Positions 7,634 to 56,434 of a stretch of 64,000 nucleotides of DNA are shown in pieces. Below the pieces are notes generated by a model. That model did no database searches. It saw only the letters and a program-made list of their open reading frames with translations, and was not told the origin of the DNA. Source of the DNA: a virus. A program made the position numbers and the translations under genes. The stretch is from positions 106,426 through 170,425 of the IMG/VR virus record IMGVR_UViG_3300032213_003144; one strand, given 5' to 3'. Numbering within the stretch: position 1 is the first letter of the stretch; each line of letters starts with the position of its first letter.

Positions 7634-10600
7634 ATGTCAAATGAAGCATTCGAATACAAGTCATCGGCGCACGGCTCTCAGTCCATCAAAGGAACGGTCA
7701 GCCTAGACGAGGCCCAGGGGATAGTCGAATGTTTCGTAGCTGGAATTGGTAATAAAGACTCAGTCGGAGACGTATGTGCTTCAGGAGCCTTCACAAAGAG
7801 CCTTCTTCGCAGAAAGCCAAGAGTTGTATGGGGCCACAACTGGAATGACCCTATTGGTAAAGTATTGGAAATATACGAGGTTGGTCCACAGGACCCACGC
7901 CTCCCACTGAAAATGAAACTTGCCGGGATAGGCGGTTTGTTTGCAAAAGTTCAATTTAATCTAAGTTCAGAAAAAGGAAAAGAAGCATTTGCTAATGTCC
8001 ACTTTTTCGGAGAAGAACAAGAGTGGTCGATTGGATACAAAACACTAAGAGCTCAGTTTGACCAAAAGTCGCAAGCAAATATTCTTTACGAAGTTGAACT
8101 CTACGAAGTTAGCCCTGTTCTCCACGGAGCCAATCAGCTAACAGGAACAATATCCGTTAAGGCAGATGATTCCGCCTACGGAGGTTCAGTAGCAATGATG
8201 CCGCAAAGAGAAGAGAGCAACGGCTACGAAGAAATGGAGAAGGAACTCTCCAATCTATTCGGTGCAAAAGTTTCTGTTCATTCAATCGATGGCGACGAGG
8301 TCGTATTCACACGCCAAGAGATGAACGGTGCGAAGAAGTACAAGTGCGGCTTCATGAGAAATCAAGGCCGATACATGTTCGGAACTCCTGAAGTAATCAA
8401 TATTCCGCAGTCCCCAGTTCGTTCTCCTCAATCAGCACCAATGCCTGTGGTGAGCGGAAGACCTACTCCACCCAACGACCCACAACGCGTCATTAGACCA
8501 CAACAGATGCCTTCAATACCAGTTGCGATTAAGCCAAGCGACAATGGGCTAATGATGATTCCTCTTCCAGCTGTTCAGTATGACTCAAACGAAAAGCCGT
8601 CCCTGGACAAGGAGGAAGCAGACCTCCGTGATGCGCTGTTAAAGATAGTTTCACGCCACGGCAAATTTAACGAAGACTCTAACGGCGTATGGGCTGGATA
8701 CAGCCCTGCAGAAGAAAACGAAGTAGCACGTATCGGTGTTAAATGCTCAAACTGCGTCTTCTATCAAGGCGGCTCAAAGTGCAAAATTATTGACATGCCA
8801 GTTGAGCCAGAAGGGAAATGCAGATTTGCTGTTATTCCAAATGGGATTGTTTTGAGCAGTGGTTCCAAAGAACTCGAAGAGCATGTTTCCGAAGCAGAAA
8901 ATGCAATCATCGATGTACTAGAACTAAAATACCCAGGCGAGTTTGTTCTTGGAATTGTCAGAAATGCAGTTGGTAAGAAAAAGAAGAAAAGAAATAAATA
9001 CAAAAATCTTTCAGAGTTTGGTGATGACGACGACATGGGTGAAAAGTCGTACGTAATACCAGTCGAGCCAAGTTTTGCATTTAGAGTAAAAACAGCCCTT
9101 GACCCAATATTCGATTACCACAGAGCAGAGACTTTTGTTGACTCAGAAGGAATAGTGATTACCTCTGGGGTAACTGAAAATCTCATAGACGCAGTCGATA
9201 CGGCTCTTCACAACTTAAAAAAAAAATTCTCAGAACATGAAATAGAGGGAAAATCCCTCGGTTACAGAATAGGTCGGTCGCTTGGTTCGAGGCTCGTAGA
9301 TAGACCAAACCTCGGTGGTGGTAGGGATAGAAACAACCGTGGCGGCGGTCGTGGATTCGGGATGCCGGATGGCGACCTTGACCCCAGGACAAGAGTTGAC
9401 AAGAATAGGGATGGAACACTTTTTGATAATGTCCCAGGATGGGAACAGCCAGACCCAACCCCAGATGGACCTGGTTCGATAAATAACCGAAAACTCTCTT
9501 CCTCACAAAGAAGAGATGTTGCCAATATTCCGAGCGAGAGCGTAAACCCAGAATCGGTAGACGGTGACGTAATAAAGAGCCGCAAACCAAGGTATACGGC
9601 TGATGACCTTGGTGAAATCCTTGGAGAAAAGAAGAAGCCAACGAAGAAGGCAGTAGCAAAAAAATCTCCTGTTAAAAAAGAAAAAGTAAAGCGTGGAGAA
9701 CTTGATTTCGCTAAGGGTCCCAAAAAAGATAAGACACCATCACTATCCTCTGGTGAGGAAAGACCGCCACGTACTGCAGTTGCAATGCAGATGGACCCAA
9801 AGAATTCGAAGCTTGCAAGACAGATTGATTACGACCCACAGAATGGTGACCTCACTGTTTATTACAGAGATGGCAAAAAAGAAACATTCAATGATGTTCC
9901 TTATGACCGCGTGCGTAAGGCTGGATTTGACGACAAGCCAGATGCATTAATCAGTGCACTACAGAGAGAACAAAAGAAACCACAAGGCAGGATTAGTCTT
10001 GCATCTGGGGAGCAAGAAAAGAGACTTACCCGCCACTCTGGTGACCCAAAATTTGAATCACTTGTATCTCCAGAAGAACTTGAAAAGCGTAAGAAGTTTG
10101 AAGAAGTAATTAAAGACTGGAAAGACTCTGGTTACGGATGGGAAGACGTTCCTAGATACAAGCCAGACGTCTACAAGTCCCCGGATTATTTGCGTGGTAG
10201 GGAAATGGGCGTCAATCAGGCCAAAGTTATGTGGCGTGGAGATAGCACGGTAGAGAGACCAAAGGGATTCAACGAAAAGCAAAAAGCCTCACTTGATTAT
10301 CAAGAGTGGTATTCACGAATGGTGATGAGGGCTGGAGCTTTTCTAGAAGCATCACGTGGCGATGACAACGAATTCTACAACGGCATGGAAGATGCCATGC
10401 ATGAATTCATGTACAACAATAGACCAGATATAACAACCTACAACATCGATGGAGATAGAAAAGAACCGATGGCCGACTGGATGCGTCAGTACGGATTCGA
10501 CCCAGGCTCACCGACTCCATTAAGAAAGAAAAAAGAAGGAAAGAAGAGAAGTTCACTCTCCCTCTCTTCTGGCGCAGACGACGATACAAGACCAAACTTT

Positions 10601-13600
10601 GATGAAGAGAATTACGAAAGTGATACCAACGTAGATTTCTACGACACCCTTCTTGACATGATGGGCCCAGAAGAAGAAAGACCAAAAGTCACTTCTCGCA
10701 AAAAGCCAAAAGACATGAGTGATGAAGAGATTTATCGCAAGAGAACAACAACCGGAGCATCCCTGCAGGATGTTGCGGAAGAACTTGGTCTAACTAGAAT
10801 GGAAGTTAGGAAGCGCGAACAACGACACATGCGCAAAATGCGCAATGAAAAAGACGGCGTATCACTTTCTTCTGGAGCAAGCGATGACTGGGCCACTTCT
10901 AGGGGATACGAGCCAGACAGATTCGACCTTCGCGAAACGATGAATCAAATTGGTAGAGGAAACATAATGGCCATATCTGGTGGCCGCGTTGAGCGTAGAG
11001 GGAATGAAATGATTCTTCCTTCTACAAAAGACCAGCAAGTAGTCATCGGGTACAACTCGGTTCCAGACCTCTACTACGTCAGAGCTGAGCAGAAAATAAA
11101 TACAGGTAAGGACAAGGGAACCAACAGAATTCTTGCGCAATGGGACGAGGTTTATGCTGACGAAATTGGCGAACTCGCATATCAGGCAAGTCTCAAGCCA
11201 GCAAACCTCAATAGTGAGAACAAGGAGTACTGGAAGCTCGGCAAGGGAAATCAATTTGCAGACAGACTCGTTGATAGACGTAGCGGAAAGCTCGTAAGCA
11301 GAGAATCAAGAAATCTTCCATCAAAGCCAGCGCCAGAGGAAAGCCCAACTCTTTCTTCGGGTGGCAGAGGTCGTGACTACTACAACTACGACATAACAAC
11401 AACCGATGAAGGAAATGGATTACTCGACCAGGTGCATGATTACCTTGAAGAGAACCCCCTAATCAAAGATGACATAACAACCGATATTGCAGACATGCTC
11501 GGTGGAGATGGAATAGTTGAGGCTAATGGCTTTGACACAAAAAAGGCATTTGACCTGGTTACTGGTGGAGACGATGAGTTCCAGGATTATATGGACATCG
11601 TTGATGATGCCATGGAGGCCCTAAGTAATGGCTCCCTAGCAAAGCACAAGGCAACCGTTCGCGATACGAATGTAAGACTTGAGTCAGCAAAGCCAGGCAG
11701 TAATGAAGCAGGAAAACTCGAAGCAATCCGTGATAGGTCGTACGAGTGGATTGGCGACATAAACAAGTATTCACGCGTATCCACAATTAAAGATAAGAAG
11801 AATATTGAAGCCAGCGACGTGGCAACAAGAATGATTTCCAAAGAGCAAGATTCGCTCTGGAATGCTCGCGCGTCAATAACAGAAAAATATATTGAAGATA
11901 TTGCTTCAGCTGGAAAAGAATCAAAGCGCCGTGTATCAATCAGCGCAGTAGATACAGACTCTCGCGACATTCCAGAGTATGATTTAGCTCTCTCGTCTGG
12001 CAGTGTTTTTAAGGATAAACCAGCATCAAAAACGCTTTCCGGTAAGGCTGATGGCCTTTCTCTTGCCTCTGGAGAAAATAAAAAGATTTATGACGAAATA
12101 GGTAAGTCCATTCTTGAGGCATTAATTGAGATGGATAAGAACCCAACAGCAACCTATTGGGACGTACCGTGGAGAACACCAACCCTATACGCAAGAAACC
12201 CAACAAAGAATCGCCTTTATCAGGGAATGAACTCCCTACTGCTTGCCAATGCGCATAGGCAGAATAAGTACAGAGGAAATTTCTGGGCCGGGAAGACTCA
12301 GTGGGCAAAGTTCGGTGGAACAATAAAGAATGGCAAGGATGGAGTAAATATCCTTGTTCCAAGAGAGGGTTCAACCGGAAAATACTTTGTCGTACAGACC
12401 GTATATAACCTCGATGATATTGAAGGGCTCCCAGATGCATATGTAAAGAAGCTTCTAGATACAGGAAAGGAACTTCTTGACCCAGCGACAAAGATAAAGG
12501 ACGCCGAGTCGGTAATGGAGGAAATTAATCCTGTCATCAAGTTTGGCGGAGATGCTGCATACTTCTCAATTACGAATGACCATATTCAAATGCCACCATA
12601 CGAGATGTTTAAGTCTCCAGAGCAGTACTACTCAACCCTACTGCATGAGCTAACACACTGGACTGGCGGAAAGTCTCGTCTTGGAAGAAAGCAGGTAGGC
12701 CGCCAACAGGACAAGAAGGCTTATGCATACGAGGAATTAATTGCAGAAATGGGTTCTTCTTTCCTTCTTGCCGCACTTGGCATCGCACCAGAAGTAAGAC
12801 AAGACCACGTTGTTTATATCAAGAGTTGGATTTCCAACCTTCGCGAGGACCCGGGTGCATTCGTTAGAGCAATGACTGAGGCGCAGCAGGCGGCAGACTG
12901 GGTCATGGATAGGTCTCCAACAATGAGAAGACTTTCCGGTGTACCTGATAGCGAAAGAAAAGGAAAGCCAGATGCGGTTGATGCTGGGGAATCCGCAGTC
13001 TCAGAAGTAGTTGAAGAGACTAAGGGCTCTGTTACAGCACTCTCATCCGGCTCTCAAGTTGGATTAAGGAAAGCAAAAGAACTCAGATACTTTGGCGATG
13101 AAAAAGAATATGGCTCAGGCATAACTCAAAGAGACTCCAGTGGAAGGATTCTTGATGAATCTGGAGCACTTTCTCTTTCAAGTGGTGCAAAACCAATCGT
13201 CAGCCTTGACGGTAAAACAACGATTCCAAGACTAGACGACTCTGTCTCGTATAGAGAAAAGTATAAGTTCCTTCCTGATGAATTTGAACCAACAGAACAA
13301 CAAAAGGCTTCAATAGACACGCTTGTTCATATGCTTGAAAGTGAGACACCAGGGATTGTCGCTATTGGTGCTGGTGCTGGTTCAGGAAAGACAACCAACC
13401 TTAAACAGAATGCTCGTGCAGTTGCCGCACTTTACCCTGGAAAACAAATTTATTACACCGTATTCAATAGAGGAAATGCTAAAGACGGAAACAGGGTGAT
13501 GCCTAGAAATACAGGTGTTGCAACTGGGAACCAAATAGCATATTGGTCACTTGTTCTTGGAACTGGAGACGCCTTCTATGGTGCTGGAACAACCAGAAAG

Positions 13601-26500: not shown

Positions 26501-28619
26501 GGATGGGTGGGATGGTGTTGAGGTTACTGAAGTTGATTTGTCATCAGACATTCTGCCAACTGAATCACACCTAAAAGGTTCTTCTATAGACAAAGTCGTA
26601 TCTGGTCAGGAGCCATTTAGAGAGGGCTATTACCCGAACCTCGTAATTGACGTAGATGGGAAGATGTACATATCGGATGGTCATAATAGAGTCGCCATGA
26701 ATAGGGCTCTTGGAAATCAGACAATCCAAGCTCGAGTTATAGACCTTAGAAAGATTGAACAACCATGGGGCGAACAGAAGCCAGGTAAATCAAACTATGG
26801 TGGATACGACCTAGTTGAGCCAGACAATCCACTGCCAGAAAGCGGAAAGTACGCAGAAGATGTTGTTGACGCAGCAGACAAGCAACGAGAAAAACTAAAG
26901 CCTGTAGAGAAAGAAATAACCAAAACCCTAATCGACCTTTCCAACAAACATGGCGCTGTAATGATTGGTCTCGCTGCACGATTTAAATCAGTTAAATCTC
27001 TAGCGAGAAAGATAAATGACGAAAGAGGAAGCAGGACTGCCGAAGAGGCAGCTGCAGACATGTCTGATGTAATCAGGTACACGATGACATACACTCCAGA
27101 AAACTATGTGAGTGGAGCAAAATCTGTAATCGACGAATTGCAGTCAGCTGGATATAGGCTTACTGTTAAAAACTACTGGAAAACAGGCGACCCATATCAG
27201 GGGATAAATATTGCTGCAGTACATCCTGACGGAACCAGATTTGAGTTGCAATTTCATACCCCACAGTCTGCAGTGGAAAAAGAAGTAATTCACAAGGTCT
27301 ATGACGAATACAGGGTTGAAACTGACCCCAAAAAGCGTTGGAAGCTATACGACCGTATGACAAGAATGGCAGAACGAATTGATATTCCGGTTGAACCAGG
27401 TATTCAGGATATAGGTGAAACCAGATTCCAAGATTTCTCCCTTGCTTCCGGTGCTCAAATAGATAAGCCAGAAGCACCAGTACGGCAGTCAGGCGCAACC
27501 AAGAAAATAACCAACAGCGAAACAGTGGTAGACGAAAGCACTGGTCGCTCTGTTGGTAAAAATAGAGATAAAAAAGAAAGCACAAAGAAAGATGTTGCTG
27601 CTGAATGGTTCTCTTCGTTTAAGAGTTTTGAATCACCGGATTTTGGTAAGAATAAAGATGAATATGGAAGAATGCGAAAATACTACGAGAGCGTTGGTCT
27701 TACCAAGGACGTCAGAGACGACCTTATGCCGGTCTCTGGATATCTGGTTCACAAATCTGATATTCAGAAAAAGAAAAATGATGTTATAAAAAATAGAGTT
27801 GGCAACGTGGGCCCAGACGCAGTATTTGAGGTGCAAGATAACGACATAGTTGGTGACGGATTGACTTCCCTTGGTGATGTCGAGATAGTTCTGAAGCCAG
27901 AGGTATCAAAGAGGACCTCATATGGCAGAGGTTCTGGTATAAAGAATGGGCATAGACCGGTAAGGATGGACTCTACGTCTAGGGATGATATAGCGCATGC
28001 TGTTTCGTACTCTCAAAATTCCAACACCAACGCTGATTCCTCTGATGCACTGGTTAACCTCCTTGCCTCATCTATCGACGGGGATTTTTCAAGAGTATCC
28101 AGGAGTAGTAAAACAAAAGGAAACGAGAACTTCGAAGCACACATACTTGGCGGTTTTGATGCCGATGAGGTTGATTCAATTAACTACCCATATTCGAAAC
28201 TCTCAAAATTAAGCGAAAAAGAAGATATTTCAGACGTGGTAAACGATAAATCAATCGCTGCCTCACTTAGGGATATGGGATTCACTCAGGCAGAAATAGA
28301 TTACTTCTACTCGGTTGGTGGACCTGGTCAGATAAATACCGAAAGTATGGCGAAACTGCGCGAATACAGAATGTCGAAGAAAGTCAAAAATGAGTACTCA
28401 AGGCTTGGTTTCTCAAAGGTCAAAATTGCCCACCCACAAGGATTGAACATCGAGAACCCAAGAACTCATTCAAAAGCTTCTCGTGGGATAGAGGATATTG
28501 AGAGTCTTCTCAAGAAAGAAATAGCTACAGAGATAAAGAAGACCGTAGAGGAACTACTAAAGGAAATGCGCAAGGGTCAGAAGCCAAGAGTTGTCTCAAA
28601 GGTTGGTTCCGGAATATGA
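20520..28619 (+). CDS. Giant putative polyprotein: HExxH zincin, coiled coil, degenerate ART-like region, two ParB/Srx-like domains, RelA/SpoT-type synthetase, DUF3626-like C-terminus
   Basis: HEIAH; IVDGHHR and ISDGHNR; RFKSVKSLARK/DVIRYT/YQGIN/ELQFHT; VLKPEVSKRTS...FEAHILGG. Confidence 0.85.
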   Translation: MTGDRNKTRVIVSQRLISPLSCCNNFNSKALEFRSSVVQSLSSSRLDADAAVKAAMGKKPTYEDTDNRKREFTGTTKPGVTEIAPGIRVEGNQAWEEGRGLVLYPSWKSKRSMDLDANFGWIKTEKDIDFQAAQKKRKEKPQLQFTKYQVSKKTGDVIPDSEVNIDMAYPHLGLSRAQRRKKNNYISNPKMEFKAGLPGRSLESRVPGGNLLARTAGRFGIMRDAANKFRCPPGTPAANQFTDHLGSNCFGVSAERAAKFIAEKISDLMKVNDDSISLSSGAKSTWRERLGLARPDVELPGRSPSFDLETGDRIPTTPAEIVDVPGRLRWFKNATVNAQRNLARSESVIQKLESRMVTGDFTPEQRAVNADRHALLQILSNRGIWDINIEGRLSESEVNELIASRLESIPEWSSLTDEEKLALFTADKKRFYETERAMLDSLLEQFVIRPEHMRTIGTVQFRQAALPGNSEADTLWDAGTKGAEIKSVIRINLAQIMENQESLIPNMSASERLVISAVGAKTDAEALASVADFLINTEYTARGMAGLIDGPRSFARHIMLHEIAHTIQGEAFLATIKQQIDAVGYVQVPVVKDGKFTGALKEVSDFKKLTGMDLSALVISSQDDINLTALEETMSKIENVAFLAGSYPGQYKNPEKMEVYALESTAELWGLREEGLIFGDDIDDALGFMDDAIGAKASEARAATDLEMLEKLEESYFSPYERGEDVLPIRKHLRSAIELDKKAIAIKREEREIAAHREEIKDLDQDGLAEKLADTIFEIEIRKDILSNLEKERIDTEKAGLPLESIDEEIERIKSPLRLLEKKKQIEIAKNRDFNSDGKSKSDKEITDMALEINRAKTPATEEMVKRRETEARIDSLRSEAESLDEKSLMKTIADYDLKASSLKPDSDEYITAVADREIFIQQHIANQRAAGDTRPERAIRNELKAEITKEITASRKAVDEAKRGKLKPQKMKSKEQIAQNAKKERAKLRRNITKQQFEAVKEIDDFNTAEITQMLEPEKQVVIGRAINKRNNRLKRLGLESDPSSVDEGSLDEQVENILIPAMEAIDASDITTPFEMEVFLDSSKLSRVKPGKEIDIDSFGQGKVLSRSMKPGKPEKGSKKKRVVVQVKEGDRGLFPLAKKGDDQQFVIPPGKLRVVGRDKDGSLIVEISSQKDTVDVLDDLSKSIGDGPGDAIWRQGAKKKIQLVADRHAVKRKDEVSGTKSDDAIKVTETSESVVSEVSTAGAEFGETSSEKFLTLSSSAELTTESLRTKRHEKYGEVIGKPGERSESLKSSIAALMDEDRNLAASVEEILDNESNEQIIERIETAAQKLHSGFDRRVRVRMNEDDIRELAEQRKIRAIRNTDSSVSSGMSRRTERLSLSSGEKKMSRKDTEEAFAKRVKERITTKLSRIPPPKLEEGLSPSEEEKAIRKHVDKWFDNLTDAELAELGAKRFYLPDGTPLLSKTTGRVIYQTENNEVAASLLSLGQTVEMPEHKRGESLMVKQAASQIKKALKELAKENPGQIVTADLCKFYVEGKNVFCSENLKVDRLEMPQVGGRAVNNESMALRLWGSGLATAETVEAHPAFENGKLTVGLKARLATLENGTMEAEELEKDIEVLQLIGTGYEGAGVEQIAITPEQQRVMDKYGVTITARELKRLGEKWNRTATARIEGKEPDPSDELTDIERKNFFDNIDYSMIEPDGVDAFTNFLKMLGVGIQEDRVTKPDELMASQRELDGPKVDNISENILQAVKKLTEIKDPAEKKKEIERLRREHGLFKKILISKEGYIVDGHHRIIGKIVTNGVLSEDIPGLDQDDLDILGLPVRQIDMGIIELLTVSRIYQDFLGIKPASLSATDDDSFKTAGVVGKKSKKIITDAEDMHGIDKIPKITQQEFDDEHEKLKTQLEEKTDEIYARGQFIQVDSVGLNNTKESKLYKEVQLKRQKEATARVDAGKARSPGLKENRDRSVREYGMKWKPEYSEVKSVEESKAWDGWDGVEVTEVDLSSDILPTESHLKGSSIDKVVSGQEPFREGYYPNLVIDVDGKMYISDGHNRVAMNRALGNQTIQARVIDLRKIEQPWGEQKPGKSNYGGYDLVEPDNPLPESGKYAEDVVDAADKQREKLKPVEKEITKTLIDLSNKHGAVMIGLAARFKSVKSLARKINDERGSRTAEEAAADMSDVIRYTMTYTPENYVSGAKSVIDELQSAGYRLTVKNYWKTGDPYQGINIAAVHPDGTRFELQFHTPQSAVEKEVIHKVYDEYRVETDPKKRWKLYDRMTRMAERIDIPVEPGIQDIGETRFQDFSLASGAQIDKPEAPVRQSGATKKITNSETVVDESTGRSVGKNRDKKESTKKDVAAEWFSSFKSFESPDFGKNKDEYGRMRKYYESVGLTKDVRDDLMPVSGYLVHKSDIQKKKNDVIKNRVGNVGPDAVFEVQDNDIVGDGLTSLGDVEIVLKPEVSKRTSYGRGSGIKNGHRPVRMDSTSRDDIAHAVSYSQNSNTNADSSDALVNLLASSIDGDFSRVSRSSKTKGNENFEAHILGGFDADEVDSINYPYSKLSKLSEKEDISDVVNDKSIAASLRDMGFTQAEIDYFYSVGGPGQINTESMAKLREYRMSKKVKNEYSRLGFSKVKIAHPQGLNIENPRTHSKASRGIEDIESLLKKEIATEIKKTVEELLKEMRKGQKPRVVSKVGSGI

Positions 28620-29116: not shown

Positions 29117-29760
29117 TGACAAGCGAAAACATTAAAGCCGACCCACTTGGCGGAATACTCCCACAGGAGCTTGTCACTGGAGACATCCTAAGAGGCCATG
29201 GACCACGACGGGGCAACCTAGAGCGTCTGCTGCGCTACTGGCGACCAATCATGAAGAAGCCAGGCGGTTTTAGGCGCTGCAGATTGATACTTGCTAACCA
29301 CCCAGAGCTCTACCCACTCTCCAATATATGTGCTTGGCTTCACCATGAGACAACTGGTCTGTGGCCAAATGAGGGATGTCATCACCCAACAATGAAGAAC
29401 TGCAGAAAAAAACTTCGGAAACTCACAAACTGGACCGACTCTCAATTCAGTTCATCACTGTCTGGGAAAAAACCCAAGAATGTCGTACGCGAGATTGGCG
29501 GAAATAAGTCTTTAGAAGAAGATGTTTTCTTTCATGATTTTGAAAATCAAGAATTTCAATTTAAATCAGTGGTGACCGAAAACGACGTAATGCACGCCAT
29601 TGAAGTTTTGAGAGACTTTCTCGAGATGGAAGATTCTTTTTGCAAGATGCTAAGAGACGACAAGAACTGGGAAATTTCAGGAGAAGACGAAAACGGCCAA
29701 GAGAAGTCCATGCCTTACGAGAACACAAAGTCACTCGAGGAAGAGTGTTGTGGAAATTAA
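29116..29760 (+). CDS. Conserved phage head-region protein with Cys/His motif
   Basis: LLRYW...PGGFRRC...ICAWLHHETTGLWP; translationally coupled. Confidence 0.65.
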   Translation: MTSENIKADPLGGILPQELVTGDILRGHGPRRGNLERLLRYWRPIMKKPGGFRRCRLILANHPELYPLSNICAWLHHETTGLWPNEGCHHPTMKNCRKKLRKLTNWTDSQFSSSLSGKKPKNVVREIGGNKSLEEDVFFHDFENQEFQFKSVVTENDVMHAIEVLRDFLEMEDSFCKMLRDDKNWEISGEDENGQEKSMPYENTKSLEEECCGN

Positions 29761-31744
29761 TCAAGACTGCTGCCCTGAAGTAAAGGTGAAGCGGACGATA
29801 GTTGCTGACTTATTTATCAAATCAAACACTGACGCCATACGTGGCATAGGTGCAGTCAATCAACTATTCGTTGACTACAAAGCAGTATCAAGATTGAATG
29901 GGAATACCAGAAGAAAAGATGATAACTCGATTCAATTTAAGGCTAATGCGGTAAGAAAACTAGGCTCGACTTTGACAAGTCTCGCGATACCTGGTGACTC
30001 CGACCCACTTAACTCACCGATTCGCTCTACCGTCTACAGAACATTAACCCCAGGAAAGCCAGGAATACCCGGAAGCATGCCAATGAAGCCAAACCGCGGA
30101 TATAGATGCCCAGAGGGGTATCAGTTCGGCGGCCGATTCACGGACTCCCGTCTCTCCACGTGTGGAGCAAAGCTGTTTGATATTCCATCCCCTCTTGGTC
30201 TTGCGATTAGTGCGGTAAGAAGAGCAATAAGAGGAAACGTGAGTCGTACGAGCGGTAGAGACATAACAGGAGTTGCCGCTCCGAGTTCTATCATTTCATC
30301 ACGAGCACCACAAATACCAAAAGTAACTCTTGATAATCCTTCAGCAAGAAGAACAGGCTCTTCGTCCCTCGTTAATGAGATAGGAAAATACAACAAATCC
30401 TCTAATGAACTTATTCGCAGAATGGTCAGACGTGACGGATTCGTCCTAGAGCCAGTAGTTCCAGACAAAGTGTTGAGAGCCATCCCAGACAACAGGGACA
30501 TGGAGGGCGCTACATATATTCGTTCATTACTGACAATGGAAGATGTTGGAAATGAAGAACTTGGAATGCTTTCAAACACAGGCGTTACATCTCTAATTTA
30601 CGTAATGCCAGGCGGTTCAACAATCAGTCTAGAGAAGGCACGAAAGTTAACGGTTGGTGAAAGAAGAAAACTGGGCAGAACTATAAGTACTGCGATGTCC
30701 AACCCTGTTGGCAAAGACCCTTCTTCGCGTCTTAAGTTCGTTGCGAATGAGATGGGTGATGGAATCAGGTATTCCGAAGATTTCCGTGGAGTAAAGAACC
30801 CAAACAGTTTGATTTCGGGAAGTCCAAAGTGGGTTAATGACCTGATAAAGAACAGGAAGATATCTTCTCCAAAGATACCTAGCTCTACGAGCCCATTAAA
30901 AGAAGACAAAAATGTGAAGTTGATAACCAACCTAGAGCAAGCAATAAATCACATTGCAAATGGCGGGAAACTGTCAGAGATTTCTCCAGAGATAATTGAA
31001 CAGATACTCCGCGACCCATCAATATTGGCAAGACAGGAACTTTCGGATGCCGTTTCATTGGTCGCTGCCGGGGATGGCAAATGGTTTCTTTACAAGGACC
31101 CAAAGGCGTTCCAGCATTTGGCTGAAAGATTTGCCTCGAGCTTACAGAAAAAACTCGGTCTACAGTCTCCAGATGTTGTATTTGCTGCAGGAAAGAACAA
31201 CAACAGAATGTATATGAGACAGGATATCGAAAGCGTAATACCTGGCTCCAAGTTCAATCCAAATATAAAATTCAACGACCTAGAGCCTCTTGATGTTGCA
31301 AGAATTATGGTTTCAGACTATCTGACTGACCAAAGAGAAAGACCAATGACGTCGATATATCCAGTCGACACAAGCGAGGGTGTTCGCGCAATTGTGGCCA
31401 ATAACAACTCGTCAGGACTTGTTGACCTATCAAAAATAGAAATTACAAAGAGAATGAAGATGGCAATTGACAACTACTACGAGTCACAGTTAATACCTTC
31501 CTATTCAGAGTACTACCAGGCCTTGAAGGTTGAACAGAGAATCATATTTATGAAGTACCTATCCCAACTTATAAACAGGGCACGCTCAATTAACAAGCAA
31601 GAACTACTTGGTGAACTTGATAAATATGGACTCTCTACTGGAGAGAAAATACACATAAACATCATCGACAAATTATTCTCACTGAGAATCGAATCACTAA
31701 ATTCCCAAAAAGAAAAACTCAAATCAGTAGTACGCGGCGGGTAA
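29750..31744 (+). CDS. Head-region protein with N-terminal CPxG module and degenerate HipA/PI3-4-kinase-like C-terminus
   Basis: YRCPEGYQFGGRFT; HLAERFAS...LGLQSPDV, SDYLTDQRER, IVANNN resemble HipA-like kinase motifs with catalytic substitutions. Confidence 0.6.
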   Translation: MEINQDCCPEVKVKRTIVADLFIKSNTDAIRGIGAVNQLFVDYKAVSRLNGNTRRKDDNSIQFKANAVRKLGSTLTSLAIPGDSDPLNSPIRSTVYRTLTPGKPGIPGSMPMKPNRGYRCPEGYQFGGRFTDSRLSTCGAKLFDIPSPLGLAISAVRRAIRGNVSRTSGRDITGVAAPSSIISSRAPQIPKVTLDNPSARRTGSSSLVNEIGKYNKSSNELIRRMVRRDGFVLEPVVPDKVLRAIPDNRDMEGATYIRSLLTMEDVGNEELGMLSNTGVTSLIYVMPGGSTISLEKARKLTVGERRKLGRTISTAMSNPVGKDPSSRLKFVANEMGDGIRYSEDFRGVKNPNSLISGSPKWVNDLIKNRKISSPKIPSSTSPLKEDKNVKLITNLEQAINHIANGGKLSEISPEIIEQILRDPSILARQELSDAVSLVAAGDGKWFLYKDPKAFQHLAERFASSLQKKLGLQSPDVVFAAGKNNNRMYMRQDIESVIPGSKFNPNIKFNDLEPLDVARIMVSDYLTDQRERPMTSIYPVDTSEGVRAIVANNNSSGLVDLSKIEITKRMKMAIDNYYESQLIPSYSEYYQALKVEQRIIFMKYLSQLINRARSINKQELLGELDKYGLSTGEKIHINIIDKLFSLRIESLNSQKEKLKSVVRGG

Positions 31745-33730: not shown

Positions 33731-35098
33731 ATGTCGCAAGACAAAGCAAGAACAGAAGAGTTGCAATCAGCTCTTCGCACGAAAATGGCAGAGAATAAGG
33801 CCATTGCGGATTCATTCAAAGTTGAAGAAGGAACTGTCATAGTTTCGACAGACCAGAAATCAGCATTCGACAAGAACATGAGAGACATCAAGGAAATTAA
33901 GTCACTCTTGTCCGACCTTGAAACAATGGGCTCAGTAGAGTCATGGTCAAATCAGCCACAGGGCGAAACAGTTTCATCTGCTTACGCCGCTGCAGCTGCC
34001 GACATGAATCACCTGTCGTCACATGAAATCAAGTCAATTGGTCAGATGTTCCTTGACTCACCAGAGTTCAAGTCTTTGGCCAATGGTCGTAACGGTGCAA
34101 ACATGTCATCACCATGGCAAGTTGCAACTTCGTTGACAACACACAACTTCGGCATTCAGCAGAAGGACATTTACACAGCATTGCCAACAACATCAGTAAC
34201 AAACAGCCGCCTCGGTGAGTTTGGAACAGTTCAACGCGATGCCATGGTTCTTCCTCCAATGCGTACGAAGCGTGTCCGTGACTTGTTCCCAGTTCGTAGA
34301 ACAAACGCAGCAGTTATCGAGTACTTCCGTCAGCTTGGTTTTACAACCCTTCAAGCTGGTCATGGAACAAACTCGGCATCATCTGTTGCTGAAAGAACAA
34401 CAGCTGGAACAGCATTTGGTTTGAAGCCACAATCTTCATTCGCATTCGTTGGCGAGCAAGCTCCAATTCGCACATTGGCACACTGGGAAGCTGCACACCG
34501 CAACGTCCTCGCCGATGAGCCACAATTGCGCTCAATCATCGACAACGAACTGATGTACGGTCTCCGTCTTCTTGAGGATAATCAAATCCTCAACGGCAAC
34601 GGAACTGGCGAGAACCTTCTCGGTATTCTCCAGACACCAAACATCCAGAGCTACAGCTGGTCAAGCGGCGCAACCTTGCCGGTACCAGACACCAAGGCTG
34701 ATGCACTTCGCCGTGCAGCAACTCTATCGTTCTTGGCATACTACGAGCCATCTGGCATCGTTTTGCACCCGAACGACTGGGAAGATATCGAATTGACGAA
34801 GGACGTAAACGGCCAGTACTTGGTCGCTATGTCAGTCGCAATGGGCGGCGAGCCAAAGGTTTGGAGAATGCCAGTAATTGACACTCCAGCCATCACTGAA
34901 GGCCAAGCACTTGTTGGTGCCTTCGGAACCGGTGCTCAGTTGTACGACAGAGAAGAAGCAAGCATTCGCATCAGCGAACAGCACTCAGACTTCTTTGTCC
35001 GCAATGCGATTGTGGTTCTTGCAGAACAGAGACTTGCTCTCGCTGTCAAGCGCCCAGAAGCATTCGTCAAGGTGACATTCAACAACGCACCAGCGTGA
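33731..35098 (+). CDS. Major capsid protein (HK97 fold)
   Basis: N-terminal helical delta-like domain, VAE..LKPQS, EDNQILNGNGTG, VLHPNDW, FVRNAIVVLAEQRLALAVKRPEAFVK; strong AGGAG RBS. Confidence 0.95.
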   Translation: MSQDKARTEELQSALRTKMAENKAIADSFKVEEGTVIVSTDQKSAFDKNMRDIKEIKSLLSDLETMGSVESWSNQPQGETVSSAYAAAAADMNHLSSHEIKSIGQMFLDSPEFKSLANGRNGANMSSPWQVATSLTTHNFGIQQKDIYTALPTTSVTNSRLGEFGTVQRDAMVLPPMRTKRVRDLFPVRRTNAAVIEYFRQLGFTTLQAGHGTNSASSVAERTTAGTAFGLKPQSSFAFVGEQAPIRTLAHWEAAHRNVLADEPQLRSIIDNELMYGLRLLEDNQILNGNGTGENLLGILQTPNIQSYSWSSGATLPVPDTKADALRRAATLSFLAYYEPSGIVLHPNDWEDIELTKDVNGQYLVAMSVAMGGEPKVWRMPVIDTPAITEGQALVGAFGTGAQLYDREEASIRISEQHSDFFVRNAIVVLAEQRLALAVKRPEAFVKVTFNNAPA

Positions 35099-35206: not shown

Positions 35207-36475
35207 ATGGATAACAACGAAATTGACTCACTGTACGAAGAGTTGCTCAAAATCGAAGAGATTTTTATAAAGAGTGATGTAGCTACAGAACATATAGAAG
35301 ACGAAAAAGTGCACCTTGAAAGCACACCTCTTTACGACGAGTATTACGGAGCAAGAGTTTTCAGTGAACTTTCTGATAAGTTTGATGAAAGAGAAGAGAA
35401 GTCAGCGTTAAAAGACCCAGACGGTGGTCTTACTGCTGAAGGAAGAAAATTTTTCAAGCGCACTGAAGGCGCAAACTTAAAGCCTGGAGTAAAAGGCCCA
35501 GCAGATACTCCAGAAAAAATGAGAAGAAAAGGTTCATTCCTTACACGCTTCTTTACAAACCCTTCAGGTCCATTGGTTGACGAAAAAGGAAGAGCAACAA
35601 GACTTGCTTTATCCGCTACAGCTTGGGGCGAGAGAGTACCTAAGAATGCAGAAGATGCTGCTGCATTAGCATCAAAGGGTAGAGCACTGCTTGATAAATA
35701 CGAAAATTCAAAAAAGAAGTCAGAAGAAATCGAAGATATTGAAGTAAAAGCTGGCGGCTCTGCCCTTGGTGCTTCAATAGGTCAGGCTGCTGGTGGTGCT
35801 GCTCCAACTGGAACGAATCCACAAGATACAAGAGACCATGACGGCGATGGAATGATTTTTGATGGAACACCACAAGAGCAAAGAAAGCCGTACGAACGCT
35901 CCAAGGATGCCAACTACGAGAAGCAAAGAAGAAAGTTTGTACGAGAGCAACTCAGAAGGCAAGGCATAAAAGCAAACAGAAGAGTTGAAGATAGAAGTAA
36001 GGAAGAAAGAGATGCTCGAGCTAGAGCAAGAGCAGCTTTCGATAAAGTTCTACGTGACGGACAAGGAAAACCAACGGCTGACGGCCTACCAAAGGGTCCA
36101 AGTTATCCACCAGGCCAATCCGTACCAAAGAAGTATCCACCTGGACAAAAGCCTGAATATAGAAAACCCGAGCCACCAGCAGATAGAAAACCTGCTGATA
36201 GATATCCAGAGCCAGGCAAGAAGTATCCTCCTGGTCAGAAACCTTCCCCATCGAGCCCACGTGACCAAAAGCCAGCCGATAGATACCCGCAAACCAGCAA
36301 TCCTTCTGCCACACGACCTGGAGCAGATAGGACAGAGCAAGCAAGTGGCCCAGCCAGAGGTCCGCGAGTTGACAGGGACAAGAATCCAGACCCAGGATTC
36401 TTCAAGCCAAAACCACAGCTCGGACCCCCTACACCAAAAAGAACACCAGGTAACAACGGGTTACGCAGGTCCTAA
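35207..36475 (+). CDS. Head-region protein (DUF6321-like domain, DxDGDG module, Pro-rich repeats)
   Basis: KDPDGGLTAEGR..ANLKPGV..RRKGSF; DHDGDGMIFDGTP; YPPGQ and KPADRYP repeats. Confidence 0.7.
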   Translation: MDNNEIDSLYEELLKIEEIFIKSDVATEHIEDEKVHLESTPLYDEYYGARVFSELSDKFDEREEKSALKDPDGGLTAEGRKFFKRTEGANLKPGVKGPADTPEKMRRKGSFLTRFFTNPSGPLVDEKGRATRLALSATAWGERVPKNAEDAAALASKGRALLDKYENSKKKSEEIEDIEVKAGGSALGASIGQAAGGAAPTGTNPQDTRDHDGDGMIFDGTPQEQRKPYERSKDANYEKQRRKFVREQLRRQGIKANRRVEDRSKEERDARARARAAFDKVLRDGQGKPTADGLPKGPSYPPGQSVPKKYPPGQKPEYRKPEPPADRKPADRYPEPGKKYPPGQKPSPSSPRDQKPADRYPQTSNPSATRPGADRTEQASGPARGPRVDRDKNPDPGFFKPKPQLGPPTPKRTPGNNGLRRS

Positions 36476-45040: not shown

Positions 45041-45058
45041 AAACACATCTGGACGGTC

Positions 45059-45466: not shown

Positions 45467-45502
45467 GATGTCGTCCTTACCACTTGACTAAACGGGGGAT
45501 AC

Positions 45503-45835
45503 ATGAATAGCTCTGAAGTATCGGCTAAACCACCAAAGAACGGCAAGTGTCTCGGCTATGACCCAAATATTTTTTTCCCGTTTGCGGAAAAATCCGGAGA
45601 CTCCTATTCGCGGAGTTATGTAAGAGGAAGAGAAAATACGATTCTCGCAAAATCAATATGCAAAGAATGCCTCGTTTCGGAAGAGTGTCTTCAGTACTCA
45701 TTGCTTCACGAACCGCACGGAATCTGGGGTGGCAAAACGGAACGAGAAAGAAAGACTCTGAGAAGAAGACTTGGTGTGTCGCTAGTACCGAAAGAGCCAA
45801 TAAATATTTTGCTCGGATTTAAGTTCGGGGGCTAG
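45503..45835 (+). CDS. whiB: WhiB-family transcription factor
   Basis: C...FFP...AKSICKECLV..EC...HGIWGGKTERER. Confidence 0.93.
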   Translation: MNSSEVSAKPPKNGKCLGYDPNIFFPFAEKSGDSYSRSYVRGRENTILAKSICKECLVSEECLQYSLLHEPHGIWGGKTERERKTLRRRLGVSLVPKEPINILLGFKFGG

Positions 45836-45844
45836 GTTACAGAA

Positions 45845-48294: not shown

Positions 48295-48625
48295 AAATAA
48301 TAGTCAAATGAATAATGGTGTTGTCCATTCAAACATCGGTCCCGCAATGGATAAATTGGCAGAAACAATGGATATGACCATTCAACCAATAGAAAAAGAC
48401 GATGACGGTCCAGCTCAGGTTCAGCAATTAATCAGATGCACCGATACCGACAGGGACAGATGGAGACAGGCGTCTGCGCTATCCAATATGACTGTTTCTG
48501 CATGGATTAGACAAACACTTAACACCGAGGCAAAAACTCTCCTTGAGTGTGAACACCCATTGAACGAAATGTTGTTGTACCCGTGGGCAAAAATATGCAA
48601 AAAATGCAATACTAGAATATTGTAG
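48284..48625 (+). CDS. Hypothetical protein (RHH-like plus Zn ribbon)
   Basis: RWRQAS..TVSAWIR; CEH..CKKC. Confidence 0.55.
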   Translation: MSSENNSQMNNGVVHSNIGPAMDKLAETMDMTIQPIEKDDDGPAQVQQLIRCTDTDRDRWRQASALSNMTVSAWIRQTLNTEAKTLLECEHPLNEMLLYPWAKICKKCNTRIL

Positions 48626-48682
48626 TTTTAGCTAATTATAAACTCCTGGCCTTTTGGGCATAGTGGTATCATTGCAAGCGAA

Positions 48683-51600
48683 ATGTCTTCGCAAAATAAT
48701 GAGTTTGAGATTCCCTTTAGCCAGTCACGCCGTGGCAAAAAAGAGGAAATTAACGTTAAGGCAATAGGCCGGCGAATTGGCTCATCGGCAGCAAGCAGAC
48801 TCGTTGACCGACCGAATATAGGTGGTAGAAGAAGGCGCGGAACTCGTGGACTTGGCATCCCAGATGGAGACCTGAATCCCCGCACTAGAGTTGATGTCGA
48901 CGGAGATGGAACAATCTTCGATGGGTGGCCTGGCTGGGAGCAACCAGACCCAACCCCATCATCGATGCCTAATGCTCCAAAATTATCTCTATCTAGTGGA
49001 GAAAAAGATAAAAAACCATCTTTCCCACGCAAACCTACATATGGCCCATTCATTGGAAGTGCTGAAGACAGATTTGGCAAAGCAAAAACATGGGAAGAGT
49101 TTAAAGAAATTTACGACGACACCGAAATAAACTTCTTTGACTACGAAACAACTGGTCTTGTATTTGACGAATTCAGAGAGCCGTCGGCCAATGGTCAGCC
49201 AGTTCAGTTTGGCGTTGTGAGAATGAAGGGCGATAAGGAAATAGCTCGCTTGAATCTGTTTATGAACCCAAAAGAGCCGCTTGGCGAATGGTCGGCAAGA
49301 GAATTAAAAGATAGAGACGGAAACCAGCTAACAGACGAATGGCTATCCAGACAGATGTCCATGGCCGAAGCTCACAGGGCACTCGTTGAATTCGCTGGAG
49401 AAGATGCAATATTTGGTGTGCAGAATGCTGCGTTTGACAAAGACGTTCTAGAACAGACGCTTAGCGATGCCGGAATTGAATGGCGTCCCGGTGGATACCT
49501 AGATACAAAAGACATAGCAGACATGACTCTTCCTAAATGGTCTGAAGAAAATCAGGATGGGCCGTTCGTCATTGACTCTGAAGGAAACAAAAAACCATCA
49601 AATGGCCTTGCAGCAATAACCAAATACCTAGAGGTTGAGCTAGGGGAAAAACACCACACTGCAGATGCTGATGCACAGGCTACCGGCCTAGTGATGTCGG
49701 CGATAATAAATGGTGCCATTGAGAGAGACTGGCCGACAAATCTTCTTGATTCAGAAAAAAGAAAAACAAAACTGCAGAAAGATAATGAAAAATTTGATGC
49801 AGAAATAAAAAAATTTAGAGCAGCAAAAGAAGAATTTATTAAAGCTGCAAAGCAAAACGAACAGCCAAGCTTGTCGTCTGGTTCAAAAGAGCGCCCAATA
49901 ATAAAACTAGAAAACGACAAAAAGCGCCCAGTGATATCGTTCCAGAAAGATGAACGAGAATTGCTAAAAAAACATCGTTCAACAAAATACAAATATGGCG
50001 ACAAGAGTGCACTTGGTGGAGAAATTAAGTCTACTAAAACCAACTGGCTAAAGGGTTTGTCAAGTGAGCAAATTTCAGAACTCATAGTTCCCAGTTCGCA
50101 AGAAGAGCACTACAGAATGTGGGTTGACGATATAGCCCCAGGCGCATATGAGACACCGTCAATCAATGAGGCATTCAGGAAATATTATGACGAGATGATG
50201 GCAGGAAATCCATGGGATGAGGTTGACTATTCTCCGGACAACGTCCAGGCTTCACGGGATGCAGTAAAAGCACTGCTTGACTCATCACCAGCCGTTAAAT
50301 GGGCCTTTGAAAACCATGGGGCTCCATCCATTGGTGTGATGTCAGCAAAAGGAATTGAAACCTACGAAGCAATACCATCTGTAAGTCAAAAATTGACCGC
50401 GCTGCAGAATGAAAGATTTTTAGCTAAAAAACCATTTGTCAGGGCAAGACTTTCTCCTGGAACCAATTTGCTGATATTTAACAAGCGTGCCCTCATTGAT
50501 AGAGAGGGCTCGATTCCCGGGGAAGAGACTCCGCTCCTATGGTCAGACGCGCATATGCCACTAATAACCGATGCGCATATAGATAAATCAATCACTGGAA
50601 CGATTGTTCATGAATGGGGACACTGGCTTGTTTTTAGAGCAGTAAAAGACACAGAGCAGATAAAAAGGAATAGAACCAACTTCTTCGGCTCGGGGGACCT
50701 TAACGACGATAATTACATCAAAGCCCTCGCCCTATCTGAGTACTATTCAAAAACAGAAAAAAACAATGGACTTATGGATTTATGGAATAAAAAAGTTCCC
50801 ATAGAAGACTCCAGAGAGGTTCCGCGTGTTCTGACTTCATATGGTCACGTAAACGAGGCAGAAACATTCGCCGAAGGTGTAGTTGCATACTTTCATCCAA
50901 ATCCAGAAGTAAGAAAAAATGCAATAAATGAAAAGTTGCGCAACGATATTGAGACATTCCTGGGAGATGGGGACGGAAAGAAACCGTGGGACGATAATGA
51001 ATCCATAGAGCTTGCTATATCCTCTGGGCGGACATCTAAGCAGCGTTTGGAGAAGAGAGAAGCCAATTCAACCTCATCGGAACAGGCATTTTCGTCAATG
51101 CCAGAGGATGACAGGGAATTGGCCCGACTTGACTACTTCTTGTCACTCTCTTCTGGCGCAATAATTCCCGAATCCGGCTCGCGCAAACTAGAAATAATAA
51201 ACGATTTTGATGATAGAAAGAACGACAATTTTGCGACTCCGATACGCGTTGTGAGCTTTAAGGACAGTAACGGGAAAGATGTTGAGTACACGATATTTGC
51301 CACTGGGAAATTTGGCGACAGCGTTTACGTTTTTGAAAAGACAAAACTAGATAAATACGTATCAGAAAAAGAAGAAATGATTTCTCTCGCCAATGGGGTT
51401 CCATTTGAGGAGGTTGGCATATCCGTCATAAGTACAATGACAGACGAAAGAGAAATACGAGATAAAAAAAATGGCCTAGTTGGCGTAATGTCTGTCATGC
51501 CTCCGTCGGGTGACGGAGAAACATCCGTAGTACACGAAATTGCAATCGACGACAAACATAAAAGAAGAGGACTCGCCTCTGCTCTGTTTAAATACCACAG

Positions 51601-54600
51601 AGACTCATGGCCGGACCAAGACCTGCATCACAGCTCGGCACTTTCTGATGATGGGAGAGCGTTTGCTGCGGCTACCCCGTTTGACGGAACGTCCAATCCT
51701 CCAGTCGGAAATCTTCAAAACGATTTAACCAATTTCGTAAGAGGTTTGATGGAAGTGCTTCCTGACGATGAAAACGATAACGACATATCACTCTCCTCTG
51801 GGGCGAAGTATTCAGAAATTGTGAAGAGGCAGCCAAATCCTTCACGTGAGCAAATTGATTCTTCTAGAAACTTTAAGGATTTCGTTCAACTTGACGAACT
51901 AAGAAAAGAAGACGTATGGGCGACCACCGGCGTTGATGATTTCGGTGATGACATAACGGAAATGGTGGACTCAGAAGATAGGGCCAACATAAAGAAAGAT
52001 ATCAAGCAGTCAATTGAAACGTTGTTCTCTTACGAGATTGAGCTTGACGACAGTATTGTTGTAACGTCCAATTCTGGAGAAAAAATCAATCTCGGAAACA
52101 GGATAAAAATTACAGCTGTTGTTGAAGACGTTCAGGTCTCTGCTCTAGAAGAAAAAGATATCTCCGAACAGATTAACGAGATAGGGCACATGCTTATCGG
52201 AGAAGATAAGAAGCCGCTCACAAGGGTGGATGTAAAATTCAAGATATCCCCAGCCGATTCCGCGGCTACGGAAAAACTGCTCGCCTTAGGTGTGCCGGAG
52301 AGTCTTATCGATATCGACAATCCAAAAACAGACATTGAGCTTGGGCGCGCTCATAGAGCGATATTTACGGACGGCAGCAAGACGATAGTGTCCCATGAGT
52401 CAATATTCATTAGTAATAGCGCTCGCGGTAACGGTTTGGCTAGTGTATTTAATGCCAGAAATGAGTCGCTATATAGAGAGATTGATGCCGATTCAATAAT
52501 AACCCAAGGCATGTCCTCATCGTCTTCAGACCAAATCGGCGCTACCCATTGGGCCAGAAATGGTTTTACTATCCTCGGCGAGCCATCGAAGCAGAGATTC
52601 ATTGGCGTAATCGATGATGCCATAACCAACAAACCAGGGTCATTCTCTGAAGAGGAGAGGAAGAGAATATCCTCGCTATACAAAAAAGATAAAAAGACTG
52701 GGAAATTCACCTCTTCTGCAACCCCAGAAGAACTAATTGACTTCAGCGAAGCAGACGAAGTGTTTGGCCTCTCCAACAACGGTGATGGAGAAGCAATATT
52801 TTTCACTCGCGAAGTCTCAAAGCCAAGCGGAATCAATAAGGCAATGAACAGAATGAGGAGAAGGGTTGGTTCGGAAAGAACTGAATCGATTTCTCCGTCG
52901 CTTTCTTCTGGGGCTTTTGATTACCGCGGGCTCCATGGGGCTCCAGGTCGTGGCTCTGGAGCACCACTGCACGACCTGATATCCCCAGACTATTCGGTAT
53001 ACCCGGAAGACGTATATTCATCAAACGCTATTAAATACTACGGGGTTGGAGACGATAACCTTGATGCATCAGCATTCAACTTGATTAGAAGCTTTAAGGG
53101 TAAGCCAAACGCAGAGGTCACTATATATAGGGCTGTGCCTACTTCTCCTGAGACGAGAATTTCTCGTTTGGAAAAAGAAAAAGCTCACATAATGAAGTAT
53201 GGAAAAGTACCAAAGAGCGCCGTAACCAATCTAGGACCAAGCGAGTACTACGAAAAAATTAGCAATGAAATAGATGAGTTGAAAAACAACCCAGAAGTCA
53301 GGTCTTCCGTTTCTTCTGGGGACTGGGTTACCCCATTTAGACAATATGCAGTAATGCATGGAGATGGTGCTCTTCGTGGAGATTATGAAATAGTAAAGAA
53401 GCGTGTAAAAGCAAAGAATGTCTATACGGACGGAAATTCATGGCTTGAGTGGGGCTATGACGATAGTAAGGGTTCGTTGTCTTTGTCGTCTGGGGAGCAA
53501 CCTAAAATAAACCTATCAGATGATGAAAAAAGAGAGATAATACGTCTCGCATCTCAAAGGACGGATAGTTTCTCGCGTAGTGTTGTCGCTCAATACCACA
53601 GAAACAACGGAAGACTATCGAACAAGCAGTGGGCTTCGTTAAATCGAATGACATCCAGGGGCGCTCTTGGTCTTGGTTCTGGAATGGTGAGCGATGGGGA
53701 AATACTAACTAGGGTTGCCAAGTCTTTTGAGAGGGCATCACTTCCAGATGAGCCATCAACGCCAATAGACCAGAGACTTATTTCAAAAATGGTTTCTGGA
53801 CTAAAGAAAAAAGATGGAACACCGGTGTCAATTAACGACTTCCTTGGTTTCTTGTCAAAAATAGCTGACATAAATGACGACAGACTGGGTAACCACCCAG
53901 GTTTCAATGATTTGGAAGAAACAATCTTACCGATTGAATCACTTGCAGATATTTTTAAAGAACTTGGTCACTCAAGAATCGATGTACCCGGCTCAAGGAC
54001 AAAGAAGATACTCGGACCAGTGGTCAGAGAAATGGTCGACCTTGTTGGTGACGATGAATTTTTGGAGGATGCAAGACAATACGCGCTCCCACCACTGGAG
54101 GTGTGGGCCCGAGCAGCAGCAAAGTCGATTTTACAAATGCAAGAATTTACAAAAGACGTTGGTGAGCCGCGGCGTGAGTTTATGAAGCGCGAATTTAGTA
54201 TTGAGTCACTTGATGGGGTTAATTCCTTTGTGCTTAGAGATATTGGTGGAGAAATCATCATGTCTGGACCAGTTTCTGATATGCAGCAACGGGATAGGCA
54301 CGAATTCCAATATTCAAACTTGAATTCAATAATGTTCAGCTACCACCAGCAAACTCCAGGCATTCCTTTTATGACGATGGTTAAGCGCCATTTGTATCCA
54401 GACGACCCATTGGCTGAGGTTCTTGCTGACAGAAGGGTTATGTCGGCAAATAATGATGCCGCAATGGGTGGAAGAAATATGGCGGAGAGTCTAGAAAACG
54501 CCATCTTGACCCCTCTGGATGTTTACAAGTTCTCTGACTCTCCATCAGGAAGAAGAGTAAGGGAAATGTTTGAAAGGGCATATACCGACGTTGCTCACTA

Positions 54601-56434: not shown

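Follow-up and report, generated by a model that had tools for sequence, protein, structure and literature searches.

The 64,000-nucleotide stretch analysed here, hereafter the window, covers positions 106,426-170,425 of the 170,425-bp virus record IMGVR_UViG_3300032213_003144 and encodes three giant proteins (giants 1, 2 and 3; open reading frames, ORFs, 7634, 20520 and 48683) whose domains are separated by a recurrent short peptide of the form [SAT]L[SA]SG. The evidence strongly supports this junction motif as a code written at the peptide level and, judging from sequence comparison, the motif marks the units in which the cargo of these proteins is exchanged between related phages. We consider it probable that the motif is cleaved by some protease, and we put at roughly 0.5 the probability that the enzyme is a zincin domain carried by giant 2 itself. 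The wider picture is offered more tentatively: a widespread aquatic clade of actinophages may use a two-protease code, in which a prohead protease of family S78 would serve leaders with Lys sites and a dedicated zincin carried among the cargo would read, lock-and-key fashion, a lineage-private peptide in payload and tape measure.

With 12, 3 and 8 copies in ORFs 7634, 20520 and 48683, the motif stands far above the shuffle means of 0.04, 0.03 and 0.05 (2000 shuffles per giant; highest count 2). The remaining ~44,000 amino acids (aa) of the proteome hold one copy (expected 0.9), which lies in the tape measure. An unbiased k-mer ranking placed LSSG first among the 4-mers and SLSSG first among the 5-mers (log10 P -29 and -39). 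A first-pass annotation of the window had reported about 25 recurrences essentially confined to the three giants and had proposed the shuffled control; the reported number fits the 23 canonical copies found there and the 1 found elsewhere. All 12 sites it placed in ORF7634 fit the strict pattern at their coordinates, as do 21345 and 24657 in ORF20520 and 8 of the 10 in ORF48683. The site at 27435 reads FSLASG, whose first residue falls outside the set it had allowed; of its two variants in ORF20520, LTLSSS at 24288 is a plausible degenerate copy, but SVSSG at 24618 is unsupported by the profile scan. The two other degenerate copies, at 51011 and 53666, correspond to canonical ones in the alignment with a close relative (L130), bringing giant 3 to 8 canonical and 2 degenerate copies, and a further IVLSSG at 8846 had been missed.

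The 23 canonical copies have 23 distinct DNA encodings, and their serine codons (AGY/TCN) occur at the background ratio (P=0.52); therefore selection acts on the peptide, as had been concluded from the synonymous codons. Conservation of nucleotides including synonymous positions was tested for, and the motif did not show it. The flanks of the motif contain 20% hydrophobic residues versus 29% (P 1e-7), in keeping with sites in linkers between domains.

The earlier assignment of domains to motif-bounded segments largely stands. KTSC, sigma70-r4, ArdC-N with MPTase, UvrD, DEDDh, zincin and the first GNAT each lie within one segment (the KTSC, zincin and GNAT matches fall below the Pfam cut-off), and the helicase of ~1200 aa has no internal copy. 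Pfam matches include MPTase-PolyVal (E 9e-39) and ArdcN (E 4e-12), together with UvrD, RNase_T and sigma70-r4; giant 1 carries the KTSC, sigma70-r4, ArdC-N/MPTase and helicase modules among others without assignment. The second GNAT (51802-52895) has no family match, and the 'ART-like' call at 52912-53477 is unconfirmed, its sole match being phrog_2579. Cutting at every canonical and degenerate site would yield 30 segments, but about a third are spacers of 20-63 aa and some are multi-domain, leaving about 20 domain-sized products rather than the 25-30 effectors proposed earlier. In practice the motif can also be used to divide unannotated giants into single modules before their structures are predicted.

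The homologous giants of related phages, whose comparison had been suggested as a check, show gain, loss and shuffling of modules at the motif, and architectural variability between relatives is high. The 85-aa KTSC module is lost exactly motif-to-motif in three relatives (L003, L008 and L010). The DEDDh module belongs to giant 3 here but to giant 2 in genomes G013 and G014, where two copies of their own version of the motif fence it and the alignment runs almost from one copy to the other. Giant 3 modules occur in other orders in G002 and G004. There is one motif copy per joint, on both sides of each mobile cassette. Across pairs of genomes with different versions of the motif, 14 motifs fall within aligned domains versus 74 expected, and 83 alignment ends lie near a motif versus 40 expected; both results lie beyond all 2000 shifts of a shift test, and P is only indicative as the alignments are not independent. 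As an observation on size, the giant 3 homologue of G030 (C1:27637-49725; L333-L334) reaches 7362 aa, with about 19 motif copies and six HExxH domains.

Giant 2 offers a special case of insertion. Its C-terminal part is one contiguous domain in G010, G013, G014, G016 and G028, with Z scores of 10.5 and 8.5 to ADP-ribosyltransferase (ART) structures, and by its model it has an ART-like fold. In the lineages with the LSSG form of the motif, a cassette of variable length (926 aa here), which opens and mostly closes with the motif, is inserted into this domain, in a loop of low confidence that follows the first strand; thus the motif can sit inside an ancestral domain. The C-half occurs as its own gene at L157, L165, L167, L170, L175, L177, L180, L186 and L191, starting about where the motif sits in the fused forms, so the product predicted from cutting occurs in nature as a polypeptide of its own.

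The motif is written in lineage-specific dialects. The dialect of this record is xSLSSG. The core L[SA]SG persists in 80 close relatives, with lineage-specific residues (xS, xR, xK, xG) at the two positions before it; RLSSG is among the resulting forms. More distant genomes place G[FL]AS (GFAS/GLAS), G[LM]RS (GLRS), [ST]LRSSG, GSKS[TS]T (GSKST) or [IVL][TS]G[ARK]M (I[ST]G[AR]M) at the same joints. Across dialects, it is the small residue in third place (Ser/Gly) that varies least, rather than the hydrophobic residue in first place. The dialect-by-genome matrix is near-diagonal, the giants holding almost only the dialect of their own genome, and proteins under 700 aa contain 0-2 copies per genome. 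A mixture occurs in G034 (L455-L461), where GLAS and GLRS coexist and giant 3 has GLRS only, possibly a dialect transition or an imported gene. The tape measure (genome positions 92,597-97,543, minus strand; L081:6598-11544) lies outside the window, so its marking was not visible to the first-pass annotation; it has one canonical copy, at aa 584 in a Gly/Pro-rich linker. Tape measures of relatives carry the dialect of their own genome near aa 20-55, often as a second copy, and/or at aa 560-710 in the central linker. The presence of one private dialect in both cargo giants and tape measure suggests that a single reader acts on both and changes with the lineage.

The zincin of giant 2 is our candidate for that reader. 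Every motif-bearing genome examined has it at the same place; in G034 and G039 the profile score is weak with the HExxH in place. Zincin, motif and tape-measure sites are all absent in G017, G018, G031 and G033, although S78 and head proteins of 1400-2450 aa are retained there. In G010 it supplies the only HExxH of the head giants. Here the giants have three other HExxH domains, and such cargo zincins come and go between genomes. The catalytic residues H, E, H, E, A and E are invariant, among them the HExxH and downstream Glu ligand that define gluzincins, while overall identity is 15-48%, in tiers that follow the dialect groups, versus 65-77% for S78; the zincin tree has long stems between dialect groups. 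An AlphaFold2 model (pLDDT 84.5) has as its best VIA fold match the lethal-factor-type/PPEP structure 1yqy (Z 10.7, root-mean-square deviation 4.5, 195 aligned), and most of the next 40 VIA rows are zincins; the modelled domain thus has a lethal-factor/PPEP-like zincin fold, the fold of site-specific zincins. Foldseek and a sequence search of the PDB returned nothing significant for it, and the atlas gave low leads only. A complex prediction of zincin, Zn and a 30-aa motif peptide scored 0.07 and speaks neither for nor against recognition of the motif.

S78, which the first-pass annotation did not mention, heads giant 1 and follows a different rule. Its His and Ser motifs are intact, WGH and WSIGY being invariant, and it is flanked by the Lys sites FEYK/SS (7652) and ISVK/AD (8150; the slash marks the putative cut), which are kept in 20 of 20 genomes. 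Sites of the type Lys before Ser or Ala occur early in 11 of 12 head-module proteins versus 11 of 194 others, a partly circular contrast as the pattern was tuned by eye on head proteins, and they are conserved at matching places between relatives. The junction motif is absent from capsid, portal and protease flanks, which carry Lys sites instead. A second S78 was searched for in the genome and none was found. The S78 core is 77-85% identical across genomes with different dialects or none and is thus unlikely to read them; on sequence grounds, S78 is probably not the motif reader. The earlier analogy with the T4 and phiKZ head proteases points to the wrong enzyme, since the fused S78 keeps its separate Lys-site rule and the zincin fits better; the location of the giants in the head module and their leaders of the prohead-protease type support that proposal in part. 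The segment at 9242-9480, which follows a Lys site and is shared with the giant 3 N-terminus, is a candidate capsid-targeting leader. The segments after the Lys site at 9242-9480, 48749-48970 and 35740-35870 have in common a Gly/Arg-rich part followed by a DxD(G/R)DG-like motif. A two-Cys segment (RCPxG...FTD...C) follows the Lys-site leader in giant 2 (21207-21270) and in ORF29750 (about 30100-30170); it is highly conserved across all lineages and is a candidate second targeting element.

We infer cleavage, packaging and delivery of the cargo in two steps. First, the giants would be loaded into the prohead via their N-terminal leaders and trimmed after Lys by the fused S78, which would treat capsid, portal and other head proteins likewise; we propose this because of HK97 biology, the conserved Lys sites and the leader targeting of T4, phiKZ and SPN3US (PMC5694885). 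Second, the zincin would cut the junction motif, whether in the head, in the course of ejection or shortly after entry, freeing about 20 domain-sized modules small enough for ejection that would act early in the host, and would also cut the tape measure at one or two linker sites. Motif-fenced domains would be carried for free, so that cargo could be swapped as motif-to-motif cassettes, and motif and protease would drift together in each lineage.

Several observations weigh against the zincin as reader. The four motif-less genomes are distant and may represent one or two lineages, so they are not independent, and in G045 and G046 a zincin-like domain occupies a similar place without a clear motif. 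The dialects follow phylogeny in the trees of S78 and other proteins as well; co-phylogeny does not single out the zincin, and the tree comparison leaves co-evolution and shared descent unseparated. The S1' pocket of a typical zincin would read a hydrophobic residue, which the GSKST dialect lacks, and the tape measure belongs to the tail, at a distance from a protease packaged in the head. The ART fold is split by one motif pair, so the sites are not always domain borders, contrary to the expectation that the motif lies outside folded domains, though the insertion is in a loop. The zincin region has no match among 50,697 phage records, hence no cultured member. Every dialect contains Ser/Thr, which would also fit a modification site, and N4 virion RNA polymerase, ArdC and TraC1, though they carry MPTases, arrive in the recipient uncut (PMC5512222).

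These last two points also favour the alternative that survives best, which we nevertheless regard as unlikely: the motif may stay uncut and serve, on all ejected proteins, as a tag that is bound by an ejection or unfolding factor or modified by a Ser/Thr kinase or a glycosyl- or ADP-ribosyl-transferase. Tape measure and head cargo are both ejected, the cassette in the ART fold would be tolerable as a loop insertion without cutting, and the PI3K/HipA-like ORF29750 is conserved next door (a weak atlas lead, score 0.86-0.88). However, ORF29750 is also present in motif-less genomes, and a tag accounts poorly for a single copy per joint flanking each cassette rather than copies scattered through linkers, for gene fission at the motif position, or for a 1200-aa helicase without any copy.

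It is more doubtful still that the motif is a second, slower site class of the fused S78 (hydrophobic-x-hydrophobic-small before Ser). The proposed shape resembles its Lys sites and assemblin sites, GSK/ST and GLR/SS look like Lys/Arg-before-Ser sites, the enzyme is fused to giant 1 and is certainly in the prohead, and residues specific to the LSSG clade directly follow the catalytic Ser. Against this, the region after that Ser is nearly the same in GLAS, ITGAM and motif-less genomes; the near-constant core, the invariant flanking Lys sites and the lack of the motif in capsid and portal point the same way, and the HK97 protease cuts at K103/S104 (PMC10275583).

Equally doubtful is another protease, be it a host enzyme acting after injection, a cargo zincin or a phage protein so far unrecognised. 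Staphylococcus Prp is a precedent for a host enzyme that processes phage head proteins, cutting after injection would explain the tape-measure sites, and the further HExxH domains of the giants are at hand. Yet those cargo zincins vary between genomes, and five or more specificity changes among related phages would be unexpected of a host enzyme unless the hosts differ that much. Last, a DNA-level recombination or insertion site read incidentally as peptide is very improbable, the codon test having largely refuted it: module exchange does occur at these positions and the same-codon rate between copies is slightly high (28% versus 23% expected), but the encodings all differ, both Ser codon families keep the background ratio, every copy is in frame on the coding strand, and the tape-measure copy is not a cassette border; micro-homology may help shuffling as a side effect. 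Ribosomal skipping of the 2A type was rejected, as it has no sequence resemblance and would split modules from the leader before packaging.

The giants qualify as polyvalent proteins as Iyer et al. 2017 (PMC5512222) use the term: large mosaics with ArdC-N, MPTase, helicase, GNAT, ART-fold and nuclease domains, joining at least two unrelated conflict domains and MPTase/ArdC-N hubs in one polypeptide, in a virion-gene context. Giants 1 and 2 lie between the portal and capsid genes, and giant 3 lies 13 kb beyond with a leader common to them. That study predicted release of polyvalent-protein domains by MPTase autoproteolysis; unlike here, it mentions neither a cleavage nor a junction motif (the word 'linker' has 0 occurrences) and no tape-measure link or lineage dialects, and its assemblin-like peptidases are C-terminal, not N-terminal. 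T4 internal proteins and Alt (capsid-targeting sequences, gp21), phiKZ gp175 and SPN3US gp245 (PMC5694885) resemble our Lys-site tier in that the prohead protease removes N-terminal propeptides of head cargo at a short consensus; there, however, one protease with one rule removes mostly propeptides, and there is neither an internal chain of unrelated enzymes with a second cutting motif nor a dedicated zincin. HK97 gp4 (PMC10275583) matches in family and in Lys sites before Ser/Ala in capsid, portal and around the protease, but here S78 is fused to a 3500-aa cargo chain and the junction motif lacks Lys in this genome. A repeated site that is the prohead protease's own, present in capsid and protease as in T4 and phiKZ, was not found for the junction motif.

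The African swine fever virus (ASFV) precursors pp220 and pp62, cut by pS273R, and the substrates of adenain and poxvirus I7L are polyproteins cut at short Gly-containing sites. They share with the giants one precursor, many products, one short repeated site and a virion context; unlike the giants with their variable cargo, they belong to eukaryotic viruses, use cysteine proteases and give fixed structural products. No cysteine protease like these was identified here, and no whole-genome profile search for cysteine-protease families was made. In the literature searched, which leaves out most subscription journals, we found no paper describing the motif with phage and cleavage, nor a second, lineage-private motif common to cargo chains and tape measure.

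With the motif, a polyvalent-protein zincin has for the first time a concrete candidate substrate, which makes the autoproteolysis hypothesis of 2017 testable without culturing. If the zincin does cut it, this would explain how proteins of 2500-7000 aa pass the tail and why their domain content is so freely shuffled; it would also amount to a natural plug-in system for delivering proteins and to a family of orthogonal proteases with sequence specificity. With at least five dialects, each with a matched zincin, specificity can be compared in a cross-matrix; a diagonal outcome would mean new orthogonal proteases.

The record comes from an uncultured phage of Actinobacteria. Its genome encodes a tail sheath, an HK97-type portal and an HK97-type capsid, and two WhiB genes, WhiB being a marker used for actinophages (PMC6802176). 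IMG/VR holds hundreds of related contigs. The closest cultured relatives by capsid are the Gordonia phages Chidiebere and GMA6 and the Brevibacterium phage Cantare (46-49% identity). Each has a head-module protein of ~1000 aa with a Lys-site leader and a C-terminal HExxH domain, in which enrichment of the junction motif is absent; it is a tractable model for the Lys-site tier. L[AS]SG matches in the tape measures of these three phages were rejected as chance, as they lie within the helical body and are unaligned with the linker sites.

Table 1. Features of the window (window coordinates; a slash marks the putative cut of Lys sites)
Feature	Position	Strand	Remarks
Giant 1, 3690 aa	7634..18706	+	prohead protease and cargo chain; 13 motif copies
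Peptidase_S78 (HK97-type prohead protease)	7721..8152	+	Pfam E 7.5e-11; at start of giant 1
IVLSSG (degenerate)	8846..8863	+	kept in close relatives only
Lys site IEGK/SL and segment shared with giant 3 N-terminus	9242..9480	+	57-60% identity over 81 aa
PSLSSG	9737..9754	+	opens KTSC module
ISLASG	9992..10009	+	closes KTSC module
LSLSSG	10556..10573	+	opens sigma70-r4 module
VSLSSG	10859..10876	+	
PTLSSG	11345..11362	+	
LALSSG	11984..12001	+	
LSLASG	12056..12073	+	opens ArdC-N/MPTase module
TALSSG	13034..13051	+	closes ArdC-N/MPTase module
LSLSSG	13169..13186	+	opens UvrD helicase module
LSLSSG	16811..16828	+	closes helicase module
LALASG	16976..16993	+	
ISLSSG	17036..17053	+	opens conserved C-terminal module
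Very acidic 550-aa protein between giants 1 and 2	18823-20499		kept in all relatives; scaffold-like
Giant 2, 2699 aa	20520..28619	+	Lys-site leader, Cys-containing RCP segment, zincin, split ART-fold domain with inserted cassette
Lys site MEFK/AG before RCP segment	21090..21107	+	Lys at this place in 15/15 lineages
ISLSSG	21345..21362	+	
Zincin, candidate reader protease	21795..22577	+	HExxH at 22200-22214, downstream ExxAE
LTLSSS (degenerate)	24288..24305	+	before ART N-half; canonical at matching place in relatives
ART-fold N-half (helices and first strand)	24378..24596	+	hhalign prob 92.6, E 4.4e-7
LSLSSG	24657..24674	+	opens 926-aa cassette inside ART fold
Cassette domain	26835..27392	+	matches phrog_2859/7625 and XopAD C-terminal region
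FSLASG	27435..27452	+	closes cassette
ART-fold C-half	27660..28616	+	separate gene in at least 9 related loci
Conserved 664-aa head-module protein (ORF29750)	29750-31744		weak PI3K/HipA-like features
HK97-type major capsid protein	33731..35098	+	Lys sites (EIK/S); junction motif absent
Giant 3, 2583 aa	48683..56434	+	Lys-site leader, then DEDDh, zincin, GNAT, modules without assignment
Giant 3 Lys-site leader INVK/AI	48749		
LSLSSG	48983..49000	+	opens DEDDh module
PSLSSG	49865..49882	+	closes DEDDh module
LAISSG (degenerate)	51011..51028	+	
LSLSSG	51140..51157	+	opens GNAT module
ISLSSG	51785..51802	+	
PSLSSG	52895..52912	+	
LSLSSG	53477..53494	+	
LGLGSG (degenerate)	53666..53683	+	
LSLSSG	55274..55291	+	
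PSLSSG	55673..55690	+	

The domain at 26835-27392 in the cassette, absent from the first-pass annotation, looks, from inspection of its sequence, like a RelA/SpoT-type nucleotidyltransferase. ORF29750 adjoins very long proteins in all relatives; its catalytic motifs are degenerate by eye, and it is possibly a pseudokinase. The HExxH zincin-like domains of Chidiebere, GMA6 and Cantare (L345:14129-17044, L346:9974-13003 and L347:7662-10784, respectively) are unannotated. C-rich low-complexity repeats occur at both contig ends (positions 1-100 and the last 100 bases, about 63900-64000 of the window) and may be assembly edges.

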